A stretch of 64,000 nt of DNA from a virus. Both the position numbers and the translations under genes were made by a program. Shown piece by piece: positions 7,578 to 9,471 of this stretch. The stretch lies in UHGV virus genome UHGV-1374997. The stretch is one strand, 5' to 3'. Position 1 is the first letter of the stretch, and every line of letters begins with the position of its first letter. The notes below the pieces were generated by a model. That model did no database searches. It saw nothing but the letters and a program-made list of their open reading frames with translations, and had not been told where the DNA came from.

Positions 7578-7606
7578 TTGACAAATCAAAAAAGTTTCAC
7601 TATATT
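7578..7606 (+). promoter_or_regulatory. strong promoter TTGACA-N17-TATATT
   Basis: Read directly at 7578-7583 and 7601-7606. Confidence 0.6.
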
Positions 7607-7612
7607 CCTTTT

Positions 7613-7867
7613 CACGATGAGCGCATGAGCAGATGCAGACAGCATATTAAAGTTAAATACTATGATTATTTAAAACGGCATCTAGTTAAAACTCATACAC
7701 CGCTCATAATCATTTAGGTGCTTACAGCGACAAAAATTACACTTGCCTGTTAAGCAATAATGTAAAAGCACCTAGTTATTTAGATAAAGGTTCTCACAGC
7801 AACAACACAACCATTCATACTGGAAGTAGCGTCCACCAAAGGGCGCAGAACCTTGGAGAAAAAAATC
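7613..7867 (+). promoter_or_regulatory. about 255-nt structured 5' leader (nested helices 7618-7623/7701-7706, 7716-7723/7766-7773, 7788-7794/7847-7853 abutting the SD)
   Basis: Complementary segments identified by eye; function unknown. Confidence 0.35.
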
Positions 7868-9389
7868 ATGAGTACGAAAATTTCACCTTTTATTTCGGCA
7901 TTTAACAAGAATCCTGACTCTATTACGGAAAACGGATGCCTTACCTATTCTGATTCCGATAATGCCAATCTGAATTTTTTCGCATTGGCCTCCGCTAAAC
8001 GAGACTCCCTCAATTCCGCGAAGGAGCTTTTTGAGGAAGCATTAGAAGAAAATAAGAGTTTGGCAAGGAAAAACCTCTTCTATCTGCGTGATGTTCGCGG
8101 CGGACAGGGTGAAAGGGACATTTTTAGGGTCTGTATGTTGTATGATATTATCAAAAACGGTTATACTGACGACCGAAACGATATCATCTATAACATCGGA
8201 CAAATCCCCAAATATGGCAGATGGGATGATTTTTTCTGGATTATGGAGGCTATCTATCCGAGTAACGAATCCATATATGATTTTATGGTTAATTTCGTGA
8301 AAACGATTCTCGACCTCGATGAAGGTAAAATCAATATCGGACATTACGAAAATCTGACTCTTTGCGCGAAATGGTTTCCGCTAAAGAACAGTGTGTCCTA
8401 TAAGTGGAGAAAAAAATCTCGCAAAGAAACTTGTTGACGATATCTTCGATGGTAACGAGAAGAAATGCCGTAAGACCATCGTAAATATTCGAAAGCATCT
8501 GAACATTGTCGAACAGAAAATGTGCGCGAAAGAATGGAGCGATATTGAGTATAGCAAGCTCCCTTCCTATGCTTTGCTGAAACACACGAAGGCATTCACA
8601 CGAAATGATCCTTTAGGGTTTTCGGAATATACCGAAGCTGTTAAACGCGGCGAGAAAAAGGTAAATTCGAGCGTTCTTTACCCCTATGACATTGTTTATG
8701 GTGTTCAGCGGGACGGAGAGGAATATGAAGATATCTATGATGAAATGTGGAGAGCGTTGCCGGACTATACTGGTCGAAACAAAAATGCTATTTGCGTAGT
8801 AGATACCAGTGGCTCTATGCTGTCCCGAGTATCCAAATCTTCAAGTGTCACGGCTCTTGACGTGGCTATTTCTCTTGGATTGTATTTCGCTGAAAGAAGC
8901 AAAGGCCCGTTCAAAGACCATTTCTTTACTTTCAGTACCGAACCGGAGCTTGTAAAAATCTACGGAAATACGTTGCAGGAAAAAATCCAGAACATGGTTT
9001 CCAGAAATTGGGGATACGGTACAAACATCGAAGCTGTATTTTCTTTGATTCTCGATACCGCTCTTAGGCATAAATTGAAGCAAGAAGACCTTCCGGAAAC
9101 ACTGTATATCATTTCTGATATGGAGTTTAATGAGTCCACAGACTATTCAAAGACAGCTTTTGAATACATGAAGGATTCTTTCCGAGCGCATGGATATTCG
9201 CTTCCCACCATTGTATTCTGGAATGTGAATAGTCGAGGAAGAAATCTTCCTGTCCAGAAAGACGAGGTAGGAGCAACGATAGTTTCCGGCCTGTCGCCAT
9301 CCGTATTCAAGATGGCAGTACAAAACAAAAAGCCTATCGAAGTTATGCTTGACATTCTTGGCTCAGAAAGGTATGCTCGCATCAGATAA
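7868..9389 (+). CDS. DUF2828-like N-domain + von Willebrand A domain (MIDAS DTSGS) protein; reading frame broken by +1 shift in an A7 tract (8410-8416)
   Basis: Two overlapping ORFs (7853..8437, 8391..9389) join across AAAAAAA; motifs FYLRDVRGGQGERD and VVDTSGSM...GYGTN...SDME. Confidence 0.6.
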
Positions 9390-9400
9390 AAATTGATGTG

Positions 9401-9471
9401 TGTGGGGTAGTTCAGTTTGGTAGAACCAGTATCAAAAGTACGTGTTGGCGGTTCAATCCCGCCTCCCACAC
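9401..9471 (+). tRNA. tRNA-like element with intact acceptor, D and T arms but no canonical anticodon arm (pseudo-tRNA or tRNA-like ncRNA)
   Basis: Acceptor TGTGGGG/TCCCACA, D GTTC..GAAC, T GGCGG-TTCAATC-CCGCC; close paralog of the tRNA-Asn at 10563 but anticodon region is 3 nt short and unpaired. Confidence 0.45.

Follow-up and report, generated by a model that had tools for sequence, protein, structure and literature searches.

A phage locus with a predicted Ro60-fold protein gene and a leader of tandem CAGCAA-type RNA modules: a candidate counterpart of the Ro60/Y-RNA system

We analysed a stretch of 64,000 nt from the virus genome UHGV-1374997 (the window; coordinates are positions in it), in which the gene of a predicted Ro60-fold protein (7868-9389) is preceded by a structured leader of about 255 nt and followed by a tRNA-like element of 71 nt (9401-9471). 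These features, as well as the promoters and the neighbouring tRNA-Lys and tRNA-Asn genes described below, lie on the plus strand. Five close relatives (L001 and L082-L085) were used for comparison; among GenBank phages, a nucleotide search gave tRNA matches only and no close relative.

The protein gene is split in the window into two ORFs (open reading frames), 7853-8437 and 8391-9389, which overlap and are in different frames. The split is caused by a one-base insertion in an A7 homopolymer at 8410-8416, which reads TGGAGAAAAAAATCTCGC in the window and TGGAGAAAAAACCTCGC in the relatives. All five close relatives have A6 at the equivalent position and each of them encodes one intact protein of 506 amino acids that is 95% identical; removal of one A from the window sequence likewise gave 506 amino acids. 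Because all five relatives are intact, the frameshift is a window-specific insertion and not a conserved recoding site, and an error of assembly or a recent mutation is its most likely origin. A programmed frameshift at A7 was ruled out for the same reason.

The first-pass annotation of this DNA had proposed an N-terminal DUF2828 domain, a C-terminal von Willebrand A (vWA) domain with a full metal ion-dependent adhesion site (MIDAS), and an overall layout like that of Ro60 and TROVE proteins. Both domains were recovered. The split ORFs matched Pfam DUF2828 and DUF7788 (E=5.6e-50) and, weakly, VWA_2, and the corrected protein gave E=1.5e-49 for DUF7788 and E=8.3e-28 for DUF2828. The MIDAS is complete, the five residues D312, S314, S316, T385 and D417 being invariant in 47 homologues. 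The layout was supported in part. An AlphaFold2 model of the protein (pLDDT, the predicted local distance difference test, 88.9; pTM, the predicted template modelling score, 0.90) had Ro60 as its top structural match, and as modelled the protein has the Ro60 fold, a helical-repeat ring followed by a vWA domain. The similarity to TROVE did not extend to the sequence, as none of the 47 family members matched Pfam TROVE (PF05731), even at E<=10, and a weak match to vWA_Ro60 (E=0.027) was seen in one of them. Searches of PDB sequences with the protein and with the family profile did not find Ro60. The resemblance to Ro60 thus came from structure comparison only, the sequence searches against PDB giving nothing useful.

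The protein call as such is not new, since phage annotation already uses the term 'Ro-like'. With tblastn, homologues were found in 709 phage records, hence in at least 709 sequenced phages, among them mycobacteriophages, Listeria, Staphylococcus, Campylobacter and FelixO1-like phages and KVP40. Their annotations vary between 'Ro-like RNA binding protein', 'RNA-binding protein' and DUF2828, and the 506-amino-acid protein of one relative (P0001, 95% identical to the window protein) was assigned to phrog_850 'RNA-binding protein' in PHROG (E=7.4e-138).

Upstream of the gene, a sigma-70-type promoter (TTGACA-17-TATATT, 7578-7606) matches 11 of 12 consensus positions. It is placed to drive the leader and the gene and is kept in four relatives, of which L001 differs in one spacer base. 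Compared with shuffled sequence, the leader shows a better fold (z=-2.57), and its minimum-free-energy fold consists of three domains. An own promoter and a structured leader of about 255 nt had both been noted in the first-pass annotation as a side remark, and both were confirmed. The three domains are three tandem copies of one module, a helix that closes a loop beginning with a CAGCAA-type motif; the same general unit was recognised in the leaders of other members of the family.

Two covariance models of the module were used. R1 describes a closed form, in which a hairpin is followed by CAGCAA, and R2 describes an open form. R2 was trained on 72 modules of other phages, without sequence from the UHGV-1374997 lineage, and was run over the full 64 kb on both strands with filters off. 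The leader reached only 16.2 bits with R1 (E=0.17); this low score led to its recognition as the circularly permuted 'open' form, which was then captured by R2. The R2 search gave three significant matches in the window, which were the three leader sites, arranged in tandem on the strand of the gene; the next match had 10.8 bits (E=3.8). Module 1 (7628-7686; helix AGAUGC/GCAUCU, loop start AGA-CAGCAU) scored 25.8 bits (E=1.2e-3). Its helix was also found independently of R2, and it is the most variable copy among the relatives. Module 2 (7713-7776; helix UUAGGUGCU/AGCACCUAG, loop start UA-CAGCGA) was the best match in the window with 38.3 bits (E=1.5e-6). This site is near-invariant among the relatives, where it reads CAGCAA and reaches 45.6-47.0 bits. 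Module 3 (7785-7856; helix AAGGUUCU/AGAACCUU, loop start CA-CAGCAA) scored 29.3 bits (E=1.8e-4), and the two modules nearest the gene, 2 and 3, are almost invariant among the relatives. The family-specific RNA in the window is the leader.

For the family as a whole, 80 viral loci with homologues of 35-44% identity were fetched, of which 79 were non-redundant. The module found in these loci has a helix of 6-10 bp, typically (U)UAGR.../...YCUAG, and a loop that begins with (U)AA-CAGCAA(U) and ends A-rich; a G-C pair within the helix and an unpaired G just 3' of the helix are conserved. In 758 kb of sequence R2 gave 203 matches at E<=0.01, all of them on the strand of the gene and none inside the gene. 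A match was present in 71 of the 79 loci, in 65 of them within 300 nt of the gene, and all 116 matches of R1 were likewise on the strand of the gene. In the reverse direction, a 14-base DNA pattern of the module was searched in IMG/VR and returned 120 stretches, in which all 15 DUF2828 genes that were found were co-oriented with the module at a distance of 76-1700 nt. R2 was run on 100 of the stretches and detected a significant module in 30, of which 14 carry DUF2828 in the fetched flank. These data show that the modules form a family, and that this family is tightly associated with the gene in a fixed orientation.

In Rfam 15, no family besides tRNA or YrlA covered the module sites in the 13 loci searched, and searches of the literature outside subscription journals gave no description of DUF2828-linked phage RNAs. 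Three weaker modules (16.5-21.6 bits) were seen in the FelixO1-like Escherichia phage vB_EcoM-VpaE1 (L087, 5711-6347), in unannotated gaps of the tRNA array just downstream of an 'RNA-binding protein' gene, which would make this phage a convenient experimental system. On a contig labelled as a giant-virus MAG (GVMAG; L091, 121-716), three strong modules of 45-47 bits were observed and no DUF2828 gene was seen in the fetched stretch. In two marine phage contigs (L025 and L049, 3526-3819), a cyanobacterial-type tmRNA (transfer-messenger RNA) gene, scoring 115 bits in L049, lies directly upstream of the DUF2828 leader modules.

The module occurs in four settings. In the first it stands alone, in one to three copies just upstream of the gene. 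In the second it exactly fills the spacer between tRNA genes, as in L002, where the module at 392-451 lies between tRNA-Thr (318-392) and tRNA-Ser (455-540). In the third it takes the place of the anticodon in tRNA-like scaffolds that are not permuted. When the loci were scanned for tRNA scaffolds, many elements of 110-123 nt came to light beside the gene that had no ARAGORN call and often stood in tandems of two to four. Their acceptor, D and T stems are normal and strongly covarying, and an insert of 51-74 nt replaces the anticodon loop. They score 35-53 bits with the Rfam tRNA model, which skips the insert, and no other Rfam family claims them. The insert consists of a covarying hairpin (92% paired) followed by an invariant CAGCAA; this hairpin is the module helix in circularly permuted order. 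MAFFT with RNAalifold recovered only the tRNA arms of these long elements, so the inner hairpin was specified by hand; it showed 48 double changes against 13 in shuffles, and none of 500 shuffles reached 48. A reading of the long elements as intron-containing tRNAs was rejected, as a 7-nt anticodon loop could not be rebuilt and U33 is not conserved. A module-bearing tRNA-like element lies within 300 nt downstream of the gene in 16 of the 79 loci.

In the fourth setting the module forms the terminal helix of RNAs with the YrlA layout, whose loop contains a T arm, a closed acceptor hairpin and a D arm. Examples are L006 (5668-5780; terminal helix, CAGCAA, T arm, closed acceptor hairpin, D arm) and mycobacteriophage Archie. 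RNAs beside DUF2828 genes scored 32-50 bits with the Rfam YrlA model (RF02553), at most 50.3 bits (E=2e-8) and below its cut-off of 69 bits. Free-standing modules that have only a T-arm-like hairpin (GGUUCGAUUCC) in the loop were observed in L029 (6000-6056), L034 (4333-4391) and L057 (62-125), and resemble a transitional stage from the minimal module to the full YrlA-like RNA.

The gene itself is also found among tRNAs. It lies inside a co-oriented tRNA array in 39 of the 79 loci, and 389 tRNAs within 4 kb of it are on its strand against 5 on the opposite one. Together with the exactly filled spacers, these numbers would fit an explanation in which the CAGCAA modules are processing or stability signals in the transcripts of tRNA arrays (such as spacers or points of nuclease entry), the leader is a cis-regulatory structure of the ordinary kind, and the protein acts on tRNAs and not on the modules. 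We regard this explanation as unlikely. The tRNA cluster of the window (10396-10744) holds no R2 match, all modules of the window being at the DUF2828 gene, and many loci without a tRNA within 4 kb still have gene-adjacent modules. Moreover, an invariant loop sequence next to a conserved base pair is a typical mark of sites that proteins recognise.

The position of the last upstream module relative to the start codon was recorded in 53 loci. The median distance from its end to the start codon is 27 nt, and in 19 of the 53 the distance is at most 20 nt. In the window, the 3' strand of module 3 abuts the Shine-Dalgarno sequence GGAG (7855-7858), which lies 9 nt before the ATG at 7868. The junction between module and ribosome-binding site reads ..GAACCUUGGAGAAAAAAAUCAUG in the window and ..CAACUUGGAGAAAAAUCAUG in distant cyanophage-type loci, with ..CUUGGAGAAAAAUCAUG common to both; in this CUUGGAG junction, the conserved 3' G of the module serves at the same time as the first G of the Shine-Dalgarno sequence. 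In KVP40, the helix of the module closes around both the Shine-Dalgarno sequence and the AUG of the phage's own DUF2828 gene.

On the downstream side, the stop codon of the gene (9387-9389) is followed eleven nt further on by the 71-nt tRNA-like element (9401-9471). A tRNA-Lys(UUU) gene (9477-9553; ARAGORN; 66.2 bits with Rfam tRNA), identical in all relatives, begins five nt after the element and one nt after its encoded CCA. The acceptor, D and T arms of the element are identical at 48 of 50 positions to those of tRNA-Asn(GUU) (10563-10639 by ARAGORN and Rfam; arms compared over 10563-10636), and its T loop is UUCAAUC. The stretch from the D stem to the T stem, which in tRNA-Asn comprises position 26, the anticodon arm and the variable loop, is 20 nt long as compared to 23 nt in tRNA-Asn, and a mini-hairpin, GUAU-CAAAA-GUAC, replaces the anticodon arm. 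The element reached 27.7 bits with the Rfam tRNA model (RF00005), under the gathering score of 29 bits. ARAGORN forced a tRNA-Phe(AAA) call at 9400-9475 and made no call in three of the five relatives, where the stretch is 18-19 nt long. What the first-pass annotation had said about the structure of the element, namely its position eleven nt after the stop codon, arms nearly identical to tRNA-Asn, and an anticodon region 3 nt short without a 5-bp stem and 7-nt loop, was thus correct. The element thus goes back to a duplicated tRNA-Asn, of which the acceptor, D and T domains were retained and the decoding end is gone.

The first-pass annotation had further proposed that this element is the Y-RNA-like partner of the protein, an analogue of YrlA in a decoy or tether ribonucleoprotein (RNP) in which RtcB might participate. 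The element does adjoin the gene on the same strand, at 11 nt well within the 4 kb from a Ro gene used for siting YrlA RNAs, and it is kept in the five relatives, where the mini-hairpin shows compensating changes (GUAC/GUAC versus AUAC/GUAU); the module-bearing tRNA-like elements downstream of the gene in 16 of the 79 loci also speak for this proposal. However, the Rfam YrlA model did not match the element, and its sole match in 7300-11000 (19.6 bits, as compared to the 69-bit cut-off) spans two real tRNAs. The topology is that of an ordinary tRNA and not permuted, with open acceptor ends followed by CCA and the mini-hairpin at the anticodon position. R1 and R2 did not match the element either, so the conserved CAGCAA module, the sole feature common to all family-linked RNAs, was not found there. 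The arms differ at two positions among the six genomes, and because two changes in 50 nt at about 5% overall divergence equal the neutral expectation, selection on the arms is not established. The element is neither a working tRNA nor a YrlA RNA, it is probably not the main RNA partner of the protein, and we consider the proposal as a whole improbable. The more general link between a Ro-like RNP and tRNA mimics did stand: in phages at large, members of the gene family go together with tRNA arrays and with small RNAs that mimic tRNAs, and some of these RNAs have the YrlA architecture.

The element could instead be a functionless, decaying duplicate of tRNA-Asn and the frameshifted gene a pseudogene, the locus being a relic in this phage. 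This is suggested by the near-identity of the arms to tRNA-Asn, by a middle region of 18, 19 or 20 nt among near-identical phages, and by the split ORF in the window. Several observations nevertheless make it the less probable alternative to a working locus. The ORF is intact in all five relatives, and the leader modules nearest the gene are almost invariant. The middle stretch occurs in two haplotypes among the six genomes, GUA(U/C)-CAAAA-GUAC and AUAC-AAAG-GUAU, both of which keep a 4-bp hairpin. The end of the element is also kept: all five true tRNAs of the window encode CCA directly after the discriminator, and the element reads C-U-CCA, which amounts to an 8-bp acceptor stem (register 9400-9475) with a G-1:C73 pair, then U and CCA, in all six copies. 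The parent tRNA-Asn has G73 and no G-1; a G-1:C73 pair is a hallmark of tRNA-His identity. Most likely, the element is a mark for processing by RNase P and RNase Z between the mRNA and tRNA-Lys, or a remnant.

A second promoter-like site, TTGACA-17-TATGCT, lies in the 3' end of the gene (9349-9377; 10 of 12 positions). It would start transcription about 15 nt before the element, and both hexamers are kept in the relatives. This site could express the element together with tRNA-Lys; it may also be a chance match. Directly 5' of the element lies a (TG)n repeat (9390-9400), whose length varies in the relatives, including L083 and L084 (gatgtgtgtgg, gatgtgtgtgtgg, gatgcgtgtgtgtgtgg). A second tRNA-like element without an anticodon arm, 69 nt long with 16 nt between the D and T stems, was observed on an unrelated phage contig (L057, 2365-2433), 1.6 kb upstream of the DUF2828 gene. 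We also considered the AAAA in the loop of the window element as a four-base anticodon that suppresses the A7 frameshift. This idea was rejected, as two relatives have AAAG in the loop, an anticodon AAAA would read UUUU and not AAAA, and the ORFs of the relatives are all intact.

As for the wider surroundings, the gene of the small terminase subunit (Terminase_4, phrog_83; 7075-7545) lies immediately upstream, which places the Ro-like module between packaging and tRNA genes; at its end, the terminase gene overlaps with a terminator-like hairpin (7513-7532). Further downstream, about 260 bp at 9847-10106, holding an ORF of 88 amino acids (9862-10128), are absent from all relatives. This ORF is a distant paralogue of the adjoining 88-amino-acid ORF at 9580-9846 (34% identity over 29 residues, E=8e-5). 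The rtcB gene reported in the first-pass annotation is indeed present at 33481-34662 (PF01139, E=7.7e-61), but at a distance of 24 kb its link to the Ro-like locus is weak, which also counts against RtcB as part of a system built on the 71-nt element. It follows a family-A DNA polymerase gene (31267-33393) and precedes a weak Thy1-like ORF, under the Pfam cut-off, a GIY-YIG/NUMOD3 homing endonuclease gene (35328-36083) and the gene of the anaerobic ribonucleotide reductase NrdD (37318-39216).

Taken together, the interpretation that we favour, and hold to be rather probable, is that the locus is a phage version of the Ro60/Y-RNA system with a separate protein family (DUF2828 plus DUF7788) and a separate RNA element, the leader modules being both ligands and autoregulatory operators. 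By analogy with Ro60, the CAGCAA modules would be the candidate RNA ligands of the protein, in the role of the Ro-binding helix of Y RNAs. The leader copy abutting the ribosome-binding site would let the protein repress its own translation. In other phages, tRNA processing may free module RNAs from tRNA-array transcripts, and the tRNA-like scaffolds on some modules may tether tRNA-handling or other factors, as has been proposed for YrlA. The 71-nt element of the window would then be a module-less scaffold, whose most economical role is that of a processing mark before tRNA-Lys.

Several points weigh against this interpretation. The link between protein and RNA is drawn from genomic association and from analogy with Ro60, and since the modules also track tRNA arrays, they could have a protein-independent role in the processing of tRNA transcripts. 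In the reverse search, 16 of the 30 module-bearing stretches showed no DUF2828 gene in the fetched DNA. The training sets were chosen by our own scans, which for the modules demanded CAGCAA and a helix of at least 7 bp, so that the pairing percentages, including the 97.6% of the modules, are partly circular, and the E-values of R1 and R2 are rough because they come from a shortened calibration. Within the window, module 2 (CAGCGA) and module 1 (CAGCAU) are off consensus, and the gene is frameshifted in this assembly, so that the system is perhaps not active here.

Particles of Ro60 and Y RNA occur in conserved form from bacteria to humans, and what they do is only partly understood. According to the present data, a second family of Ro60-fold proteins appears to own a dedicated small-RNA partner. 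As far as we could find, the CAGCAA module is new, and so are the four architectures in which it appears, its position within tRNA arrays and the operator-like leader copies. The module combines a simple invariant core with several interchangeable architectures, and accounts for many unannotated gaps within phage tRNA clusters. Phages of E. coli or M. smegmatis offer tractable systems for studying the role of a Ro-like RNP in infection and its wiring into tRNA arrays. A much bolder view, which we put forward as speculation and think doubtful, is that DUF2828 proteins, together with the RNAs that carry CAGCAA modules, make up a class of phage RNPs that is widespread but undescribed and acts on the tRNA pool in infection. 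The module would load the ring protein; tRNA-shaped scaffolds, including the anticodon-less type at 9401-9471 with its G-1:C73 end resembling tRNA-His identity, would recruit or divert host enzymes that handle or cleave tRNAs; and the RNP would protect or repair phage and host tRNAs against tRNA-targeting defences.

Counterparts of the single parts of the locus are known from other systems. tRNA-like structures serve as processing marks in mitochondrial tRNA punctuation and in the MALAT1 mascRNA. The element at 9401-9471 resembles them in being tRNA-shaped and non-decoding, with intact acceptor and T arms, and in standing between a coding region and a real tRNA; it differs in that cleavage by RNase P or RNase Z at 9400/9401 is putative only. 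In the translational operators of ribosomal-protein operons, a protein binds to a structure in the leader of its own mRNA that mimics its normal RNA target. Here too, a copy of the candidate ligand RNA adjoins or surrounds the Shine-Dalgarno sequence and the start codon of the protein's own gene, whereas three tandem leader copies are unusual and the regulation is predicted.

In Ro60, the Y RNA binds to the outer surface of the ring and the ends of misfolded RNA enter the central hole. Like bacterial Ro60 with YrlA, the DUF2828 system combines the gene of a ring-plus-vWA protein with small RNAs that are encoded at most a few kb away and on the strand of that gene. As in YrlA, its RNAs join a terminal helix with a short conserved motif to a tRNA-like domain, and some have the exact YrlA layout at 32-50 bits. 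Unlike bacterial Ro60, the protein family lacks a TROVE match (0 of 47); the motif is CAGCAA and not the GNCGAA of YrlA, and no DUF2828-linked RNA reaches 69 bits. The module is moreover found on its own, in the leaders of mRNAs, in the gaps of tRNA arrays and in place of the anticodon in unpermuted tRNA-like scaffolds, and the DUF2828 systems sit in phage tRNA arrays. Ro60 (Rsr) with YrlA Y RNAs has been reported from bacteria and 22 phages (Chen et al. 2014, PMC4201824; Rfam RF02553). For the Ro60 of Thermus phage phiLo with its RNAs Yrl1 and Yrl2, RNA binding and the recruitment of PNPase (polynucleotide phosphorylase) were shown experimentally (Hu et al. 2025, PMC12135203; PDB 9KOP, 9L5Y). 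The phiLo protein is a recognised TROVE protein and its RNAs have CGAA motifs, whereas the DUF2828 system is known here from sequence and predicted structure. In its workings the DUF2828 system would be like Ro60/YrlA and phiLo, but it falls outside the TROVE, YrlA and tRNA families as these are delimited. With phiLo it shares a phage protein of the Ro60 fold, as predicted here, and small structured RNAs just upstream of its gene.

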